Source of the DNA: Amphiscolops sp. MND2022
Taxonomy: Eukaryota
Reading direction: 5' to 3'
NCBI GenBank assembly: GCA_964187785.1
Contig: OZ076409.1
Span: forward strand, 75,394,001-75,458,000
DNA length: 64,000 bases
The notes below the pieces were generated by a model. That model was not told the DNA's origin and searched no databases. It was given only the letters and a program-made list of their open reading frames with translations. Both the position numbers and the translations under genes were made by a program. Positions within the stretch are counted from its first letter, which is position 1; each line of letters opens with the position of its first letter. Shown piece by piece: positions 963 to 64,000 of this stretch.

Positions 963-1132
963 GCAAAAAGCCCCAAACTACGGCCCTTACCTTCCCGAGC
1001 TACGCAGTATAAAGATTGCATATTGGTTCCGACATTTTGATAGAGTTATATCTTGGTAATCTGTCTGGGTATGCAGAAAAACCAGCACGTGCTTTTTTTT
1101 ACCAAGTTGCTTACAACGACATTTATTTTATA

Positions 1133-1158
1133 TCAACGCCCCCATCTTTATCAACGCC
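1133..1158 (+). repeat. TCAACGCC direct repeats (iteron-like), ~18-20 bp apart
   Basis: Copies at 1133 and 1151, with a degenerate ACAACGAC at 1113; also at 60867 and 60887 in family L. Confidence 0.8.
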
Positions 1159-1168
1159 CCCCGTCCGT

Positions 1169-1188
1169 GGGCATGCCGAGGCATGCCC
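1169..1188. promoter_or_regulatory. 20-bp dyad GGGCATGCC-GA-GGCATGCCC (47 copies); hairpin/cruciform or p53-family-like site
   Basis: Perfect 9-bp inverted repeat, extendable by CGTC/GACG. Also reads as two abutting RRRCWWGYYY decamers with one mismatch. The motif is certain; its function is inferred. Confidence 0.6.
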
Positions 1189-1228
1189 TTCGACGACGCG
1201 CACCAAAATATTCCCCGAGCGCGTTAGC

Positions 1229-1235
1229 CTAGGTG
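1229..1235 (+). other. Invariant unit junction CTAGGTG (48 copies)
   Basis: Present at every subtype switch; the bases on both sides vary with subtype. Confidence 0.93.
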
Positions 1236-2502
1236 CCGGGATTTCTATTCGTTCGAGTATGTGGCGCGTGTGGGTAGGGCCCCTGGCGCGCTCTTTTATT
1301 TCGGGTACACCTACTCCAAATTCACGATGTGATTTCGACGATCTCGTAAACTAGCCACACGATTTGGCTGAAATTTGGCACACGTACCCCCCTCGGCACG
1401 GTGAAGATGATTCCCTACTGACGTTTTGCCCGCTAAACATTTTTTGTTGACCAAAATAACGGTTTTTGGGGTAAAATTTTCAACTTTTTTTAAATTTCAT
1501 CTTATATCTCGCCACGGGTTTACGCTAGCGCTTCAAAACCCTGCTAAAGAAAGCTTGCAAACTGTCTCAGGAATGCTGTGTGAAATTTTCAGCTCAATCG
1601 GACTTAAACTCGAGGAGATATAGCGTTTTTCCGGAGCGGGGGGGTTTCATTTTTCTAACGGTCCAGCTTATCTTTGCCATTTTTTCGAAAATGCACTCGC
1701 CTAAAGGCCTCCCCTGGCCGGTTTTATTCCCAGCAAAACCATTTGGCCCTAAATACGGAGTTTCAGCGTTCCAGCATTCCCGGGCGAAAAGTTGTGGGAC
1801 TTAGAAAATTTCAAAAATTTTCAAAAAAATTTTTTTCCGTTATTTGGGCCCCCAAAGTGGGGCAAAAGACCCCCCAACCAGTACAGCAAGTGAATGCATG
1901 TGGAAAGCCCTTGTTTAGACGAGAAAAATGCCGTTTAGAACGTTTTTTTATCGTAACTTGACATTGACTTTTGTCGTTTTGAAGGTGACCGTTAGATACG
2001 GAAAATTGATGTTTTGAGTGTTTATCCCATCTGAAAGCCATTGAGATACAACATGTTTTGCTCAAAACGTGTTTCATTGCAGTTTCGCTGTCCATTAACA
2101 CCCTTTGGTGTCTTTTGACGTAATTTTCTTTTCTATAATAACAATTTCTTTGTGTATTTATTCATTTTTTTCTCATCAAATAACTTGAAACAGTTGAGTA
2201 CATTCCATCTCCCTTCCCGGGGGAGATGAGAATGTACTCGCTAAAGGTCAGGAACTACGGTCTATAACTTCCACAACACAAAAGAGATTGCAAATTGTTT
2301 CAGTTTGTCGCAGAAAACTTCTTTTTGCACTCTGTGACTCGACAAAGTGAACGTTTCTTACTTACTTTGAATCTCACCATACCACAACTCATCTCTAACG
2401 TCAACGCCCCCCACACACATCAACGCCCCCCGTCCGTGGGCATGCCGAGGCATGCCCTTCGACGACGTATAGCAAAATATATTCGAACGCGGTAGCAGCT
2501 AG
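1233..2502 (+). mobile_element. Representative complete unit; putative non-autonomous element/cassette bounded by CTAG|GTG (rolling-circle/Helitron-like or recombinase-mobilised; class unresolved)
   Basis: Precise unit boundaries, a CTAG 3' end with subterminal hairpins, and near-identical subtype copies with different neighbours. The start is GTG rather than the TC of canonical Helitrons, and no transposase is present. Confidence 0.45.
1264..1291 (+). other. Post-junction stem-loop with conserved GGG-KAGGGN-CCY apex
   Basis: Found 40-44 nt after CTAG in every subtype checked; stems differ in sequence but stay complementary. Confidence 0.8.
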
Positions 2503-50800: not shown

Positions 50801-51260
50801 TACAACATGTTTTGCTCAAAACGGGTTTCATTGCAGTTTCGCTGTCTATTAACACCCTTTGGTGACTTTTGACATATTTTTGCTTTTATATAAAACCAAT
50901 TTTTTGTGCATTTTTTCTTTTTTTTTAATCTAATATCTTGAAACAGTTGAGTACATTCCATCTCCCTTCCCGGGGGAGATGAGAATGTACTCGCTAAAAG
51001 CCAAGAACTACGGCCAATACCTTCCCGAGCTACTCACTACAAAAATTGCATATGCATGCAGACCTTTTGATACATTTTTATCTTTGTAGATTGACTGGAA
51101 AAACCGAAAACTCTGTCCTGATTATACAAAGTTTCCTCACAACGACACATGTTTACGTCAACGCCCCATAGTTCTTATCAACGCCTCCCGTCCGTGGGCA
51201 TGCCGTGGCATGCCCTTCGACGACGTGCACCAAAATATATTCGAGCGCGGTAGCCGCTAG

Positions 51261-52649
51261 GTGGTTGGGGCGGTCCCCAGAACGCACAAGGAGGCGCGGG
51301 GAGGGTCCTGCGCCGACGTAGAATAATTTCATATAATACTAGTATCCTACATGGGTGTTTTAGAGGCGATTTTGGAATCTAACCGTAGGATTTGGATAAT
51401 TTTTTGCATGCGGCCATAACTCGAAATTCTAAGAACTTTTTCCTACTGTCATTTTCCCCGCAAATTGTTTTTTGTTGACTTATGGCCGAAAAACCGGAAA
51501 TAACGTCCTTTTTAGACGTTATATCCGAAGTGTCGTCATAACTTTTTTCCAGGGCATGCTAGCGTTCTCGTTCACTCTTACACTTAGTTGCAGCATCTCA
51601 AAATACAACTGGTGGAAAATTTTGGTTGCATTCGGATCACCCCCCACCGAGATAGAAGGGTTCCCCCCTCCAGTTTTACCCCCCAAATTTGCAAAATAGC
51701 CAATTTTGAGCATGAAGCCGAGGATTTAGCGTACCCATACCCTCCTGATGTTTTGTTGTACGTATTGGGGTCAATCTGACGACATGTGTGGTTTTCACCC
51801 CCAACCCCCCCTTGGACCGGAAATGACACTTTTTTGTGTTTTTTGGCAGAATTTAGCCTTTTTCATTATTAGGCAGTCGTTTTAGGGACTCCTAGCAGGA
51901 TATCGAAATTGAAATACAACCTGATCACAACCCAGTGACAACATAGTGGCCACTTGGAGGTATCATCATGACCGGAAGTGGGGTCAACCCCCCTTTTTGT
52001 GACCGCTTTTTGACCTTGTGCACCAAAATGCCAACATCTTGAGGCCTAATGAGGCATTCAAATCTGTACCAAGATAAAATGTTAGACAACCGAAGTCCCG
52101 GAAGACCTTTAGCATATACCGGAAGTTACCCCCCATGACCGGAAGTTACCCAATGTGACCGGAAATGGTCCAAAAATTAATGTAAAGTTGAATTTTTTAC
52201 TATTTCAAGACCACTTAATTGAAACTTTTCAATCTATAAACTAGCGTACTGGCTTGTTTTGCTGAATTTATGGAAATTGATGAGCTCTATCGCCCCCGAT
52301 AGCCTTCGAAGTTGACCTTGCGTCAACTTTGTAGGCTATCGATAAAGAATAAGAAACAACAAAGTACATTGTTGCTCTCGTTTTTTTCCCGTTGTTTTTC
52401 CTCAAACATTCTTGAGACATATACATGGCCGTTAGTTGAAATCAATATTTAGCCCATGTTATAGCTGGAGCAGCGAAGCGTTACACAGACTAGTGTGGTT
52501 TTGAAATCACACTATTTAAATTAACAACTGACCGTCTTAGTCAACTCCACACATTCATACCAACGCCCACCGTCTGTGGGCATGCCGAGGCATGCCCTTC
52601 GACGACGTATGACGAATCCACTCCAACGACACCCGCAGTCCTCAGCTAG
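51261..52649 (+). repeat. 1389 bp unit of the second (L-related) family embedded in the 1.28 kb array
   Basis: Bounded by CTAGGTG on both sides. Lacks the central block and GAGTACATT hairpin; has a GATAGCC...GGCTATC hairpin and ACCGGAART motifs like family L. Confidence 0.88.
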
Positions 52650-53921
52650 GTGGCCGGAAATTTTTTTTTCAGCAAAATCTTTGCCATTGGGGGAGGGGCC
52701 CCGGATGGCCAGTAGTACGGTATAGCTTCCTACCAAATCCAGATGGAAAAAACGTGATTTTGGAAACTAGCCGTCAGAATTTGCTCAAATTTTGCATACG
52801 GCTTCCTATAACAATTCTAAGAACTAATCCCTACTGGCATTTTGCCCAAAAAACGCAAAAAGTTGGTCAAAATCTTAGTTTTTTGGTCAAAAAATTGCGT
52901 TTTTTCGAAAAAAAATTTTTTCAGAGACAATTACTCGTAACTGGTTCACCCAGCGCAAAAACGCCTAGCTGATTTTTTGTTGGGCACTTCATGAGGAGTG
53001 CGTATACAAATTTTCGTCCAAATCGGATAAAAGTTGATTGAGAAATAACTGAAAATTTGAGGCATTTTTTTGGAAATTTTTGAAATCCCAGTCTATCTCT
53101 GCCGTTTTTTGCCCAGATTTTTTTCCAGACACTCTCCTAAAGACCTCCCCTGGCCGGTTTACCTCCCAGCAAAACCATTTGGCCCTAAATACGGAGTTTC
53201 AGCATTCCAGCAAACCCCGGGTAAAAGATAAATGACTTAGAATTTTTTCGAAAAATTTTCAAAAATTTTTTTTTTCAAATTCAGGCCTCCTAAAGTAAAG
53301 AAACTTCCACACAACTAGGATTGCAAGTGATAGCATGTGGAAAGTGCTTGAATAGACGAGAAAAATGAGCTATTATACGACTCTGTAGCTTAACCTGACG
53401 TTGACTTATGATAATTTTAGTGTGAGCTTCGTTTGTGCTTAAAAAATTTAAAAAACCTAAAAGTCTTTTTAAGGTAATCAGGATACGTCCAATCAACCCC
53501 AGAGCTGTTATATTGCCGTTGTGTAGTAGAGCAACACCATTTAGAGTGTTTTGACCCATTTTGACAAGTTTTGATACAGTCTTGTTCATCCAATAGCTTA
53601 AAACAGTTGAGTACATTCCATCTCCCCCCTTGTGGGGGAGATGAGAATGTACTCGCTAAAAGTCAGGTACTATAGCGCCCATTTTGTTTTATTCGACGCT
53701 AGTGATGCTATTGCAGACGAATACAATAGTTTTGTCAAATCATGTTTGACATGATGAATCTTACTTTACCTTTAGTTTACGTTTACCTACTACTACAACA
53801 TCACATCCCTGACGTCAACGCCACATACCCACATCAACGCCCACCGTCCGTGGGCATGCCGAGGCATGCCCTTCGACGACGTATGCCAAATAGCGCCACA
53901 GGGCGCAAACTTGTCCGCTAG

Positions 53922-55180
53922 GTGGTCGGGGCGCTCTCCCAACCTCTTCCGCCGCCTCGGGGAGGGTCCTGATTGGCGGCACCCCTTATGGAAAACTTAC
54001 TGTTAGAAACGCACCAGTGTAATGCTGATTTCGAAAACCACCCGTACGATTTTGCTCAAATTTTGCATGTAGCTCCCAAATTCCAATACAAGAACTAATT
54101 CCTACTGCCATTTTTCCGGGAAAACTCAAAAAGTTGGTCAAAAATGACATTTTCTGAGTGAAAAATGGCCATTTTTTGACTTTTTTATTTTTGATCGGCT
54201 ATAACTTTTTCCAGGGTGCTCGGATCGAAAAAAGTTTGTATAGGTAAAGTTGTTCGGCACTTCGAGTAGAACTCGTAGACAAAGTTTGGTTGAGATCGGA
54301 TGAAAATTGACTGAGGAATAACCGAAAAACCATCGATTTTTTGAAAAAAATTTTGACACACTAGTATGACTCTGCCGTTTTTCGGCCAAAGTTCTTTCTA
54401 GAACCTCGTCTAAAGTCCTCCCCTGGCTGAATTACCTCCCAGCAAAACCATTTGGCCCATTTGCCGAAGTTTCAGCGTTCCAGCATTCCCCGGGTAAAAG
54501 ATAAATGACTTAGAATTTTTACAAAAAAATTTCAAAAAAAATTTTTTTCTTCAAGCTTCCCAAAGTCAAGGAACTTCCACACAACTAGTATTGCAAGTGA
54601 ATGCATGTGGAAAGTGCTCGAATAGACGAAAAAAATGAGCTATTATGAAGCTCTGTAGCTTAACCTGACGTTGACTTATGACAATTTTAGTGTGAGCTTG
54701 CTATGTCGTAAAAATGAAAAAAACTCAAAATCGAAGCTAAGTCTCATCCAAAACTCATCGGAATACGTTCAATCAACCCCAGAGCTGTTCAATCAGCGCT
54801 GTTTAGTGCAGCAACGCTATTTAGGGCCTTAGGATCCATTTTGGTAAGTTTTGAAACCGTCTTATCCTTCTAATAGCACAAAACAGTTTCGTACATTCCA
54901 TCTCCCTCTCGGGGGAGATGAGAATGTACTCACAAAAAACCAAGTATTACACCCCCATTCTACCAGTAGTGGCGTTACAAATGCAGCAGCGTGAGCTTTA
55001 CAGTAGTCTCTACGTGTGTTGACTCTGAGCTAAAAATGTATTTATATCACCAAACGTGAATGAAATGTTTTACTCCAAAATTATTTTACATTTAATATGT
55101 CATCAATGCACGCATTTCAATCTATCTACAACTACTACTACCTACCCCCGTGCTAGTCACGCACAAGCCTGCAGCGCTAG
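53922..55180 (+). repeat. Divergent 1259 bp unit lacking the GGGCATGCC dyad
   Basis: Central block (~54408-54515) and bulged hairpin (~54892-54929) are present. The last ~250 bp are unrelated to other tails but still end in GCTAG|GTG. Confidence 0.88.
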
Positions 55181-58100: not shown

Positions 58101-59008
58101 CCGTTCCGATCGGACCTGTAGTCTTGGAGAAATAACGGTATTTTTGGGGAACCTTTTCTAACGGTCCAGCTTATCTTTGCCATTTTTTCGAAAATGTACT
58201 CGCCTAAAGGCCTCCCCCTGGCCGAATTTACTCCCAGCAAAACCATTTGGCCCTAAATACGGAGTTTCAGCGTTCCAGCATTCCCGGGCGAAAAGTTGTG
58301 GGACTTGGAAAATTTTCAAAAATTTTCAAAAAATTTTTTTTTCGTTTTCCGGGCCCCCAATGAAGGGGAAACGACCCCCCAACAAGTATTTTGAGTGAAT
58401 TCATGTGGAAAGCCCTTGTTTTGACGAGAAAAATACCGTTTAGAACATCTTTTTATCTTGACTCAACGTTGACTTATGACGTTTTGAATGTGATGTAAGG
58501 ATGTAGGAGGCATGTGATAAGTTGATGTTTTGAGTCTTTATCTCATATGAAAGCGGTTGAGATGCAAGCTGTCCTGCTCAAAACGTCTTTCGTTGTAACT
58601 TTCCAGTGCACCAATACCCTTTGGTGTCATATAAACATACTTTTTGTCGATATATTAACAATTTTAATGTATTTATTCCAATTTTTATTATCTTATAACT
58701 CAAAACAGTTGAGTACATTTCATCTCCCTTTCGGGGGAGATGAGAATGTACTCGCTAAAGACCTAGCGCCATGACCAAAAGTTTGAAACCCACGTTTTTT
58801 ATCTTCTTACAGACTTGTTTTTGTATTTTTTCGGAATTTTTTAAAAATTAATATACTTGAAATACATTACTTGACTTTACTACTACAACCCACCTCCAAC
58901 GACAACGCCCCCCGGCTTGCATCAACGCCCACCGTCCGTGGGCATGCCGAGGCATGCCCTTCGACGACGTATGCCAAATGCCCAGTGCCACGCAGTCATT
59001 ATCGCTAG

Positions 59009-62000
59009 GTGCGGGGGGGAAACCCCAACAAATATATTGGAGGATTCGGGTAGGGTCCTGAATCCGATTTTAACTCTAATAGCTATCGATAGGAAATCTT
59101 GCAAAAATTTCGGGATCTCGTGATCTAACCATAGGATTTTAAAGTTGGAGCGGCCCCCACCAGATTTTCCGAAAATTAGCGCCCCCCACCGGGTTCCATA
59201 CCCCGGAAAATTTTTTTCTGGCCACACGGGCGACCGTTAGGGGGTCATTTTAGGGGTAAAAATCATATTGGGCCACATAACTTTTTTTCTGTTGATTTAA
59301 AACTTTGGAACCCTGCTAAAAGTTTCTTGACCGTGTTGCAGGGGCCCCGAAGGTCCAAACCAAATTTTTCTATCTTGAAGCTATCTCCAAGTACCCCCCC
59401 GCTCAAACCGTTATTTTTCCGGAAACGCAGGTTTTTGACCCGGAAGGAGTCGTCTGAGCGCGGGGTCGTTAGGTGATGTATTGGGGACGGCCTTGAGACG
59501 AAGTGGGGGACAAGTAGTTTGCCAACCTCAATTTACCCCCCGGACGGGAAATGACCGTTATATGAGCGTGAAAAATGCCCCCTCCACGTTTTACCGCTAT
59601 TTCCGGTGTGAAGGAGTGGGAGTAGCGCGTCGGGTGCCATATATCAAAAGTAGGTTTAGACAAGGACCTATCGGAAACATGTGGTTTGGGACCCCCTGGA
59701 CCAACCCGTTAGCGGGAAATGGGGCTTCCGCCTCCTTTTTTTACGGTTAAAAACGGAAAATGGGCATTGAGGGGTAAATATCTCGTGAACGCGTGGAGCA
59801 ATCGTGTCCATCACTACTACAAGGTTTCATACCCATGATATGGTGCCTTCAGGGGGGCAAACAGATTTCCGCTATCTATCACCGTTACGGACTTGGCCCC
59901 CCAGCCTAACCGCTATGTGACCGGAAATGTCACTTTTTGAGCCCAAAGGGTCGGTCCCAGCCGGGGAACGTTAGGTAACTTATTGTAGTACTCAGTGAGA
60001 CGAGTTGGGGGATATAGTTTCAGTCACCCCCCGTTACCCCTTGGGACCGGAAATGACCGTTATGTGGGTAAAATTGCAATTTTTATACTTTTTCAAGTGT
60101 ATTTAGGTGCGGAAGGAGTGGTAATAGGTGCTTGGACACTATATGAGGTAAGAGAGGACGTGAGGCGAGCATTCGGAAATAACCGTTATGTTGACCCTAA
60201 AGTCCCCCTGGTACCGTAAACGACCGGAAATGGTCAAATTTTGTGTCTATTGGGTACAAATGTTTTGTATTTTGTAGATAAAAGTATCTATTAGGTGTTT
60301 CGACGGACTACAGTAGTGAACATAGTCATGAAACCTTGTGGGGGGTAACGGTATATAGCACCGGAAGTCAAACCGTTGGAGACAGGATAGGTTTTTTGGT
60401 TTTAAAATGTCTTTCGGCGTAATTTTTTCGACTCTTGTGGACTATTTTTAAAAATTAAAGTTTTTCCATATAGTTTCAGAGACTCCGAAACCTCAACCAA
60501 CATAACCGTTACCTTATGATAGCCTTTCAAGTTGGCCTGGTGTCAACTTGGAAGCGCTATCCTTCTGAAATCGGTAATCAAGAGTGTTTTTGGGTAGGTA
60601 TATATTGCATTAGTACCAATTAGAGCTTCATCAACAGTGTATCAACGACAAAAACTATGCCGTCATGATTCCGTTATTAGAATCATAGTGAGCAAATTGT
60701 TGAAAAAAATGGTTTTTTCCATACAAAATGTGTCCTAAATGCCAGGAAACCTATTTACCTAACAAATGGTGTTAATTGGAATGTTTGTAACAGATTTATA
60801 AAAGTTCAAATTGAATATTACATTTCATTATGGAAGCTGAAACGTCATATTTTAGTTTAATTAACGTCAACGCCACACACTTTACATCAACGCCCATCGT
60901 CTGTGGGCATGCCGAGGCATGCCCTTCGACGACGTATGACAAATCCATATCAAACGACGCCCGTACATGCCGGGCTAGGTGCGGGGGGGTAACCCCTACA
61001 AAGATATTGGAGGATTCGGGTAGGGTCCTGAATCCGATTTTAACTCTAATAGCTATCGATAGGAAATCTTGCAAAAATTTCGGGATCTCGTGATCTAACC
61101 ATAGGATTTTAAAGTTGGAGCGGCCCCCACCAGATTTTCCGAAAATTAGCGCCCCCCACCGGGTTCCATACCCCGGAAAATTTTTTTCTGGCCACACGGG
61201 CGACCGTTAGGGGGTCATTTTAGGGGTAAAATTCATATTGGGCCACATAACTTTTTTTCTGTTGATTTAAAACTTTGGAACCCTGCTAAAAGTTTCTTGA
61301 CCGTGTTGCAGGGGCCCCGAAGGTCCAAACCAAATTTTTCTATCTTGAAGCTATCTCCAATTACCCCCCCGCTCAAACCGTTATTTTTCCGGAAACGCAG
61401 GTTTTTGACCCGGAAGGATTCGTCTGAGCGCGGGGTCGTTAGGTGATGTATTGGGGACGGCCTTGAGACGAAGTGGGGGACAAGTAGTTTGCCAACCTCA
61501 ATTTACCCCCCGGACGGGAAATGACCGTTATATGAGCGGGAAAATTGCCCCCCTCCACGTTTTACCGCTATTTCCGGTGTGAAGGAGTGGGAGTAGCGCG
61601 TCGGGTGTTATATAACAAAAGTAGGTTTAGACAAGGACCTATCGGAAACATGTAGTTTGGGACCCCCTGGACCAACCCGTTAGCGGGAAATGGGGCTTCC
61701 GCCTCCTTTTTTTAGTGCTAAAACCGTAAAATGGGCATTGAGGGGTAAATATCTCGTGAACGCGTGGAGCAATCGTGTCCATCACTACTACAAGGTTTCA
61801 TACCCATGATATGGTGCCTTCAGGGGGGCAAACAGATTTCCGCTATCTATCACCGTTACCGACTTGGCCCCCCAGCCTAACCGCTATGTGACCGGAAATG
61901 TCACTTTTTGAGCCCAAAGGGTCGGTCCCAGCCGGGGAACGTTAGGTAACTTATTGTAGTACTCAATGAGACGAGTTGGGGGATATAGTTTCAGTCACCC

Positions 62001-64000
62001 CCCGTTACCCCTTGGGACCGGAAATGACCGTTATGTGGGTAAAATTGCAATTTTCATACTTTTTCAAGTGTATTTAGGTGCGGAAGGAGTGGTAATAGGT
62101 GCTTGGACACTATATGAGGTAAGGGAGGACGTGAGGCGAGCATTCGGAAATAACCGTTATGTTGACCCTAAAGTCCCCCTGGTACCGTAAACGACCGGAA
62201 ATGGTCAAATTTTGTGTCTATTGGGTACAAATGTTTTGTATTTTGTAGATAAAAGTATCTATTAGGTGTTTCGACGGTTTGCAGTAGTGAACATAGTCAT
62301 GAAACCTTGTGGGGGGTAACGGTATATAGCACCGGAAGTCAAACCGTTGGAGACAGGATAGGTTTTTTGGTTTTAAAATGTCTTTCGGCGTAATTTTTTC
62401 GACTCTTGTGGACTATTTTTAAAAATTAAAGTTTTTCCATATAGTTTCAGAGACTCCGAAACCTCAACCAACATAACCGTTACCTTATGATAGCCTTTCA
62501 AGTTGGCCTGGTGTCAACTTGGAAGCGCTATCCTTCTGAAATCGTTAATCAAGAGTGTTTTTGGGTAGGTATATATTGCATTAGTACCAATTAGAGCTTC
62601 ATCAACAGTGTATCAACGACAAAAACTATGCCGTCATGATTCCGTTATCAGAATCATAGTGAGCAAATTGTTGAAAAAAATGGTTTTTTCCATACAAAAT
62701 GTGTCCTAAATGCCAGGAAACCTATTTACCTAACAAATGGTATTAATTGGAATGTTTGTAACAGATTTATAAAAGTTCAAATTGAATATTACATTTCATT
62801 ATGGAAGCTGAAACGTCATATTTTAGTTTAATTAACGTCAACGCCACACACTTTACATCAACGCACACCGTCTGTGGGCATGCCGAGGCATGCCCTTCGA
62901 CGACGTATACCAAATACATACCTAACGACGCCCGTACATCCCGGGCTAGGTGCGGGGGGGTAACCCCAACAAAATTTTTGGAGGATTCGGGTAGGGTCCT
63001 GAATCCGATTTTGACTCTAATAGCTATCGATAGGAAATCTTGCAAAAATTTCGGGATCTCGTGATCTAACCATAGGATTTTAAAGTTGGAGCGGCCCCCA
63101 CCAGATTTTCCGAAAATTAGCGCCCCCCACCGGGTTCCATACCCCGGAAAATTTTTTTCTGGCCACACGGGCGACCGTTAGGGGGTCATTTTAGGGGTAA
63201 AATTCATATTGGGCCACATAACTTTTTTTCTGTTGATTTAAAACTTTGGGACCCTGCTAAAAGTTTCTTGACCGTGTTGCAGTGGCTCCGGAGGTCCAAA
63301 CCAAATTTTTCTATCTTGAAGCTATCTCCAAGTACCCCCCCGCTCAAACCGTTATTTTTCCGGAAACGCAGGTTTTTGACCCGGAAGGAGTCGTCTGAGC
63401 GCGGGGTCGTTAGGTGATGTTTTGGGGACGACCTTGAGACGAAGTGGGGGACATGTAGTTTGCCAACCTCAGTTTACCCCCCGGACGGGAAATGACCGTT
63501 ATATGAGCGGCAAAAATGTCCCCCTCCACGTTTTACCGCTATTTCCGGTGTGAAGGAGTGGGAGTAGCGCGTCGGGTGCCATATATCAAAAGTAGGTTTA
63601 GACAAGGATCTATCGGAAACATGTAGTTTGGGACCCCCTGGACCAACCCGTTAGCAGGAAATGGGGCTTCCGGCCCGTTTTTTTACGGTTAAAAACGGAA
63701 AATGGGCATTGAGGGGTAAATATCTCGTGAACGCGTGGAGCTACGGTGTCCTTCACCACTACAAGGTTTCATACCCATGATATGGTGCCTTCAGGGGGGC
63801 AAACAGATTTCCGCTATCTATCACCGTTACGGACTTGGCCCCCCAGCCTAACCGCTAAGTGACCGGAAATGTCACTTTTTGAGCCCAAAGGGTCGGTCCC
63901 AGCCAGGGAACGTTAGGTAACTTATTGTAGTACTCATTGAGATGAGTTGGGGGACATAGTTTCAGTCACCCCCCGTTACCCCTTGGGACCGGAAATGACC
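59009..64000 (+). repeat. Homogeneous tandem array of a ~1.97 kb unit (family L): 59009-60978, 60979-62949, 62950-64000 partial
   Basis: Three consecutive near-identical copies starting GTGCGGGGGG after CTAG. Periods are 1970 and 1971 bp. Only end motifs are shared with the 1.28 kb family. Confidence 0.96.
60518..60561 (+). other. Family-L 44-nt bulged hairpin (second copy 62489-62532; related hairpin 52298-52340)
   Basis: GATAGC-CTTTCAAGTTGGC-(CTGGT)-GTCAACTTGGAAG-C-GCTATC: fully paired with two G.T wobbles and one bulged C. Confidence 0.8.

Follow-up and report, generated by a model that had tools for sequence, protein, structure and literature searches.

The window, by which we mean the whole 64,000-nt stretch of DNA analysed, was occupied throughout by an array of units that belong to many diverged families and follow one another head to tail, their order shuffled. 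The array comprised 47 complete units on the + strand (positions 1229–62945), flanked by partial units at the window edges (1–1228 and 62946–64000). The units were bounded by the heptamer CTAGGTG, which occurred 48 times on the + strand (first at 1229–1235, last at 62946) and never on the − strand, with 3.2 occurrences per strand expected by chance. Forty-four complete units measured 1,259–1,316 bp (mean 1,282, SD 12), one measured 1,389 bp and two measured 1,970 and 1,971 bp. They fell into 13 subfamilies at a distance cut of 20% and into 20 at 12%. The 44 units of similar length (within 1229–59004) were held to this narrow range although they were deeply diverged.

The units were non-coding; the longest stop-to-stop frame in the window had 189 codons. 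The CpG observed/expected ratio of the window was 1.02, i.e. undepleted, and Tandem Repeats Finder (longest period 500) reported short arrays only. In the first complete unit (1229–2498, + strand, 1,270 bp) A-tracts were phased at about 10 bp. Over the whole window the phasing was about 10–10.5 bp, with autocorrelation peaks at 10, 19, 31, 41, 53 and 62, which suggests curved DNA.

Three parts of the array stood apart, all on the + strand. Unit 40 (51257–52645, 1,389 bp) belonged to a divergent family with at most 47% identity to the other units, and had the same junctions. Unit 42 (53918–55176) had an unrelated 3′ end and was still joined exactly at CTAGGTG; this end carried a small, different hairpin and offers a natural test case for the requirements at the 3′ end. 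Family L (59005–64000) consisted of two complete units (1,970 and 1,971 bp, 98% identical) and a partial third, the sole same-family run in the window. The three copies (98% alike) may have arisen as a rolling-circle multimer or by local duplication, and divergent units clustered towards this end of the window. A preliminary description had called the interiors of family L unrelated to the main family, which was correct for the interiors; the last ~100 nt were related.

The order of the units was random. In the first 39 units none of the lags 1–8 was significant, and no periodicity was detected. With all 47 units lag 1 alone was significant (p 0.011), a signal that we attribute to the family L run. 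Individual units were internally mosaic, indicating that homologous exchange also acts on the array.

The heptamer as the joining site

Linkage between neighbouring sequences was assessed by comparing identity matrices. The start and the end of one unit, 1.27 kb apart, were linked (Mantel r 0.41, p 0.0002), whereas the 25 nt upstream and the 25 nt downstream of a junction were not (r 0.03, p 0.20). Linkage persisted across the conserved, ~50-nt dyad block close to the 3′ end (r 0.62, p 0.0003). Across the 7-mer it disappeared (r 0.05, p 0.14), apart from a weak longer-range term (r 0.11, p 0.02). The heptamer is thus the true joining site. Twenty pairs of units were at least 97% identical (these pairs are clustered and not independent); their exact identity extended for a median of 116 nt inside the heptamer and 1 nt outside it. 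The next neighbour was common to none of 19 such pairs and the previous one to none of 20. Because the units are shuffled singly, the junction behaves not only like an end but also like a target. This unit-by-unit shuffling is the main point of the locus, and it had been overlooked in the preliminary description.

The letters flanking the heptamer varied (G, C or T before; C or G after), and a G at +10 (1239) was invariant. None of the 131 interior CTAG sites coincided with a unit start. The cut probably falls after CTAG; since the heptamer is invariant, its exact position within these seven letters is not readable.

If the array were an ordinary complex satellite, evolving through gene conversion and unequal crossing-over, or the product of an assembly with shuffled repeat copies, the heptamer would be merely a conserved motif. 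Some observations suit such an origin: the mosaic units indicate that homologous exchange occurs, family L forms a same-family run, in two near-identical pairs identity carried on beyond the 3′ junction, for 67 and 177 nt, and interior linkage fell as low as r 0.21 within a single highly conserved block. However, crossover or misassembly would switch sequences within long shared blocks. The switch was located instead at 7 nt with variable flanks, while linkage survived the dyad block, so that neither process explains the boundary. Neighbours were shared in 0 of 39 comparisons (0/19 and 0/20), and neither block inheritance nor periodic order (first 39 units), by which a higher-order-repeat satellite is recognized, was found. 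The same switch was also seen in a metagenome contig (L015, see below), and one 151-nt record of sequencing run X1 crossed a junction (single contig, depth 2.1). We consider this explanation largely refuted, and its remaining probability very small.

Two other origins of the boundary were rejected. A restriction–ligation artefact was ruled out by the single orientation of all 48 sites, the non-palindromic sequence of the site and the 131 unused interior CTAG. Units could also be read as GT…AG introns with AG/GT ratchet points. GTRAG donors were found at 0 of 48 junctions, the pyrimidine fraction was at background (0.53) and a further AG lay within 14 nt in 38 of 48. The junctions of the window and of the related contigs L014, L015 and L021 are readable as AG/GT, resembling recursive splice sites with poor donor and acceptor context.

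Hairpins and repeats flanking the junction

Each side of the junction carried a hairpin. The 3′-end hairpin H3 (1162–1195, + strand) consisted of a 4-bp outer stem, a 3×3 loop and a 9-bp inner stem, the latter corresponding to a 20-bp dyad (1169–1188). The dyad was present at 47 of 48 junctions, 38–50 nt before CTAG, and all nine inner pairs were intact in 47/47 copies, with one compensatory change from G-C to A-T. The region between the dyad and CTAG showed no folding signal (mean z 0.0 over 32 sequences). Upstream of H3 lay direct repeats of TCAACGCC (1113–1158, + strand), with copies at 1133 and 1151 and a degenerate copy (6/8) at 1113. Two copies with at most one mismatch, 18–20 nt apart, were found at 43 of 47 junctions and the third, degenerate copy at 23 of 47. 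Junction 43 (55177), at the end of unit 42, had neither dyad nor repeats.

The 5′-end hairpin H1 (1264–1291, + strand) was built around the invariant core GGGKAGGGNCC (1272–1282), of which the + strand had 48 copies and the − strand none. Its outer stem was family-specific and covarying. The distance from the C of CTAG to the core was 42–46 nt at all 48 junctions and exactly 44 nt at 35 of them. Compared with the 38–50 nt upstream, the downstream spacing is therefore fixed and the upstream spacing loose. Folding of H1 was more stable than that of shuffled sequences (z < −1) in 24 of 26 distinct sequences; it was poor in the family of junction 6. In an arm-swap test with 10 families, own arms paired better than swapped ones (−8.6 versus −5.6 kcal/mol, p 0.00015), the own arm being the best in 3/10. 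The column-wise pair count was modest (73.6% paired, a level reached by 11 of 500 shuffles; for covariation, by 47 of 500), which we ascribe to shifts in stem register. The end and the start of the same unit folded together no better than random pairs (−3.2 versus −2.9 kcal/mol).

A third, long interior hairpin, H2 (918–962, + strand, z −7.5), had its centre ~260–430 nt before the 3′ junction in 9/9 window unit types scanned, and also in L015 and L021. Its stem of 16–21 bp was built from four unrelated sequences (main family versus unit 40 and family L; L015; L021). H2 is a candidate origin for the second (lagging) strand.

The preliminary description had placed these elements accurately: the repeats with their degenerate copy, the dyad, CTAGGTG at 1229 (40 nt after the dyad) and the hairpin core, as well as their counterparts in family L (60867, 60887, 60905–60924 and 60975, with the hairpin core at 61018). 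Its near-identical spacing held downstream of the site and not upstream, where dyad and CTAG were 50 rather than 40 nt apart in family L. The repeats, said to abut the dyad, ended 10 nt before it and abutted the extended hairpin H3 instead. Their presence at the junctions was borne out for two copies and only partly for a third.

Related junctions in metagenome contigs

A pattern combining the heptamer and the H1 core occurred at 52 metagenome loci, three of which (contigs L014, L015 and L021) were homologous to the units. A unit profile aligned to L014, to two junctions of L015 and to L021, each match starting with profile position 1 at CTAGGTG and covering 180–520 positions; the E values for the four junctions were 5.8e-51, 1.3e-10, 5.3e-6 and 1.4e-17. 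The motif letters at three of the four were demanded by the search pattern; the homology beyond them and the second junction of L015 are independent of it. GTG followed CTAG at 4/4 junctions (three of them selected by the pattern).

The two junctions of L015 were 1,607 bp apart. The sequences preceding them remained 88% alike until 6 nt beyond the heptamer, where they diverged; this is the same switch as in the window. In L021 the DNA upstream of the junction matched the middle of a unit, and L021 is therefore also tandem. Its H3, 45 nt before CTAG, had a 10-pair stem of different sequence with the same 3×3 loop, and in the outer stem a T-A pair was exchanged for A-T. An interior block of ~110 nt (1690–1810 in the window, and equivalents) was 85–95% conserved across main-family units and partly conserved in L014 (539–625) and L021 (83–169). 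Upstream of the junction in L014 (1–93), a short palindrome resembled the outer stem of H3 only; this may be another type of 3′ end or host flank. All three contigs were short, with no long open reading frame where checked.

The heptamer with its surroundings is a real, non-random cis-site, and the array is present in several samples. The view that the junction is the cis-acting joining site is upheld by the linkage break at the heptamer, by homologues that begin there and by hairpins that pair despite sequence change.

In geminivirus and nanovirus origins, the nick site lies in the loop of a stem-loop, and Rep-binding iterons stand beside the hairpin. The junction had been likened to such an origin. 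Here the site lay outside a stem-loop, the longest enclosing perfect stem being at most 3 bp at 43 of 48 junctions (maximum 5). The TCAACGCC repeats, putative as Rep-binding iterons, were conserved within the array and had no match with up to one mismatch at any of the four related junctions, nor even with two mismatches in L015. Since the repeats are not kept in the relatives, spacing varies upstream and the heptamer does not sit in a hairpin loop, the analogy fails. IS200/IS605 elements carry, at the 5′ foot of each hairpin, a guide tetranucleotide that pairs with the cut site. No such guide was apparent in the window, as the foot of H1 had 14 variants and that of H3 six, none of them invariant.

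L015 also contained, within its 1,607-bp unit, two tandem tRNA-like heads (1250–1334 and 1385–1467) that were 73% alike, each with A-box and B-box patterns. ARAGORN called no tRNA in them; they are possibly polymerase III cargo or a SINE insertion. They bear on the possibility that the units are site-specific, non-autonomous retroelements, copied through a SINE-like RNA intermediate by target priming at the junction, with the hairpins acting as RNA structures. Target-specific non-LTR elements do form mixed, same-orientation arrays, for example R1 tandems (10.1101/158386). Telomeric arrays are another case. Against this, none of the 47 units was 5′-truncated or had a poly(A) or simple-repeat tail, and strict A/B box patterns were absent from the window, L014 and L021. 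The tRNA search found none, and Rfam gave sub-threshold hits only, with no match at the gathering score. A retroelement origin is thus very improbable in our judgement.

Searches for an enzyme, circles and further relatives

Exact and gapped dyad patterns matched nothing in viral, GTDB or metagenome contigs. The pattern of junction and H1 occurred at 0 viral, 28 GTDB and the 52 metagenome loci, and looser or interior patterns at 2 and 120 viral and 28 GTDB loci. Across all 230 pattern loci the unit profile revealed homology in three, and the remainder was treated as chance; none of the 56 GTDB and 122 viral loci was homologous. Searches with blastn against phages and plasmids gave no match. 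This lack of homologues, together with 64 kb devoid of genes, makes a eukaryotic host probable. The window and the 230 loci fetched yielded neither a transposase nor an autonomous unit, and no free circles, empty sites or dispersed copies. Two sequencing runs contained a small share of the window, and no RNA run was among those listed. Pieces from these two runs were short and unjoined, their loose ends did not reach a junction, and no empty site or flank was seen in them. In the parts of the literature available, no description of a mixed, shuffled array of whole units at a fixed site was found; Repbase and Dfam were outside this search, and the array may be an unclassified repeat there.

These searches bear on a further explanation, in which co-replicating minicircles, either organellar or resembling satellite viruses, would have fused at a shared nick site into a concatemer or megacircle, so that the array would not be a chromosomal array of transposons. 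The tight constraint on length and the phased A-tracts would suit small circles, and relaxases form cointegrates at shared nick sites (PMC5714925). However, related units measured 1,389, 1,607 and 1,970 bp, and no homologue was found in five viral scans, phages or plasmids. A genomic flank was not visible in the window, which speaks neither way. We regard an origin from minicircles as improbable.

A proposed model of self-targeting rolling-circle cassettes

Units were joined precisely, singly and in one orientation at a 7-mer between covarying hairpins, and their ends recurred in other samples. Our best explanation, to which we assign a probability of roughly one half, is that the units are non-autonomous HUH rolling-circle elements that follow the logic of IS91 and Helitrons, with the junction doubling as their own target. 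Rolling-circle chemistry, our leading inference, was also what the preliminary description had favoured; no enzyme was found. An HUH nuclease encoded elsewhere and supplied in trans would bind H1 at a fixed distance and nick one strand after CTAG. Displacement of one unit would stop at the following CTAG, with H3 signalling a pause or termination, and the unit would close into a circle whose junction reads CTAGGTG again. H2 would prime the second strand, and strand exchange at that same nick would then insert the circle into a junction already present. As the unit end recreates the target, the array would grow cassette by cassette, in one orientation and with mixed families; homologous exchange between units would add mosaics on top.

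The HUH reading draws on the conservation of structure rather than sequence at both ends, and on the combination of a rigid 5′ end with a loose, replaceable 3′ end (unit 42). The latter parallels Helraiser, in which the left end is described as essential and the right end, with its hairpin terminator, as dispensable (PMC4778049). Helraiser circles have precise head-to-tail junctions (PMC5876387). For IS801 and IS1294 the cleavage and target tetranucleotides are reported to be identical (GTTC), with subterminal palindromes next to them (PMC13181058); with such identity an end can recreate its target. Recombination by HUH relaxases at shared nick sites (PMC5714925) also supports this reading. 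CTAGGTG differs from the Rep_1 nick site CTTGATA (PMC10378824) by one transversion and two transitions, and the IS91-family sites CTTG, GTTC and CTCG lie beside subterminal palindromes (PMC13181058); with respect to the window both are resemblances only.

Several observations count against an HUH nuclease. Among them are the unsuccessful search for a transposase, an autonomous unit, a free circle, an empty site or a dispersed copy, the absence of 5′ TC, sub-terminal inverted repeats and TT flanks, and, from the folding tests above, the own arm of H1 being best in only 3/10 families, its modest pair count and unit ends and starts that fold together no better than random pairs. The junctions were whole in 47/47 units, unlike those of known rolling-circle arrays, in which inner copies are 3′-truncated according to the source available (PMC7492417). 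Furthermore, the pattern of ends across samples was the reverse of that reported with HELIANO, where Helitron left ends were more diverse than right ends (PMC11417382).

The precision of the junctions suits a site-specific recombinase as well, and such an enzyme is the main rival to the HUH reading. A tyrosine recombinase (as in Cryptons and integrons), or a serine recombinase acting at the central GG (as in IS607), would excise and integrate circles, the crossover taking place in a CTAGGTG core. In integrons, attC sites are recognised in their folded single-stranded form, and covarying hairpins are therefore compatible with a recombinase. The invariant 7-bp core would suit the 6–8 bp spacer of a tyrosine recombinase and the 4–6 bp terminal direct repeats of Cryptons (PMC3212892), and IS607 circles are reported to integrate at a GG dinucleotide with no target duplication (PMC10690162). 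However, no inverted binding arms were detected around the 2-bp or 6–8-bp cores tested (symmetry 0.15–0.33 versus ~0.25 by chance), the site was set apart from both hairpins by 38–50 nt instead of lying at the base of a stem, and IS607 ends are described as lacking palindromes in the source available (PMC10690162). A recombinase is a serious but doubtful alternative.

Still within the HUH reading or its rival, a broader proposal can be made tentatively. The array may represent an undescribed eukaryotic system of self-targeting cassettes, that is, mobile circles present in several host lineages, with a single-strand nuclease or recombinase for which the cassettes' own junction is the sole landing site, forming integron-like arrays of diverse whole cassettes that can carry cargo (the polymerase III heads of L015). 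If so, it would be a natural integrator that works at one site, in one orientation and cassette by cassette, and a eukaryotic mobile element that spares its host by landing in its own junction alone. Large satellite-like arrays could then arise without unequal crossing-over, and an array would be a cassette-by-cassette record of insertion history. The short cis-site, a 7-mer with two hairpins, offers a handle for finding the missing enzyme, a candidate precise and orientation-specific integrator.

Comparison with known systems

Bacterial integrons accumulate shuffled cassettes in the same orientation at one site. The window array was alike in this respect and differed in that its cassettes were non-coding and no integrase was seen.

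With Helitrons (HLE1, Helraiser) the array shared a 3′ CTAG after a hairpin, in agreement with the CTRR terminus, CTAG being present at 48/48 boundaries (with the exact cut inferred). It also shared precise head-to-tail junctions as in circles and tandem arrays, and a dispensable 3′ hairpin (PMC4778049, PMC5876387). The defining features of HLE1 and of HLE2/HINE were taken from the available parts of PMC11417382, PMC4067079 and PMC13085455. By these, canonical Helitron ends were not borne out: the 5′ TC was absent, the junction reading CTAG-GTG instead of CTAG-TC (48/48), and the hairpin lay 38–50 nt from the end, not ~11 nt as in Helitrons. Unlike Helitrons, the units had a conserved 5′ hairpin at +44. 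No long open reading frame that could encode the RepHel transposase of an autonomous partner was seen in the window, and the related contigs were short. Tandem transposons formed by double insertion or as rolling-circle concatemers are known (10.1101/158386), and in Helitron tandems inner copies are often truncated (PMC7492417). Helitron arrays repeat one family, whereas the array of the window mixed many families singly.

Motifs in the interiors of the units may recall HINE cores. Non-autonomous Helentrons (HLE2; HINE, DINE-1) are also non-coding, with a hairpin at each end (here H1 and H3) and a palindrome 38–60 bp from the 3′ end (PMC4067079, PMC13085455). Their sub-terminal inverted repeats of 11–18 nt were absent from the window, where the longest end-to-end inverted match (1 mismatch) was at most 10 nt in 46 of 47 units, and their T-rich ends and T/T insertion flanks were absent from the junctions. 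HINEs are dispersed in both orientations (PMC7492417), whereas the units had one.

Members of the IS91 family (IS91, IS801, IS1294) insert in one orientation without duplicating the target, carry a palindrome at either end and, next to the origin, a tetranucleotide whose second letter is T, and form circular junction intermediates (PMC13181058). The layout of the junctions in the window was the same, but CTAG is not among the tetranucleotides reported in that source, as far as available. IS91 elements are prokaryotic and encode a Y2 HUH transposase, whereas the units had no open reading frame and none of the 56 GTDB loci was homologous. A tetranucleotide target would strike many sites, and the array used none of its 131 interior CTAG.

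[quoted passage not shown] Replitrons encode a Y1 Rep transposase, and of the units no autonomous copy was found in the window or the loci fetched. Replitron-1 differs in its RG target, fuzzy ends and variable duplications, the window junctions being exact; the available part of this source describes no mixed self-targeted arrays. Cryptons have a short core shared by both ends and a proposed circular intermediate (PMC3212892). The 7-bp shared site of the window is one base longer than their 4–6 bp terminal direct repeats, and the 11–13 bp inverted arms around a 6–8 bp spacer, as in tyrosine recombinase sites, were absent (symmetry at chance). As in IS607-like elements, GG was present in the core; unlike in those, both ends carried conserved hairpins (PMC10690162). 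On our reading the array works like a rolling-circle element of the IS91/Helitron type, yet differs in defining features tested from Helitrons, Helentrons, Cryptons and IS200/IS605.
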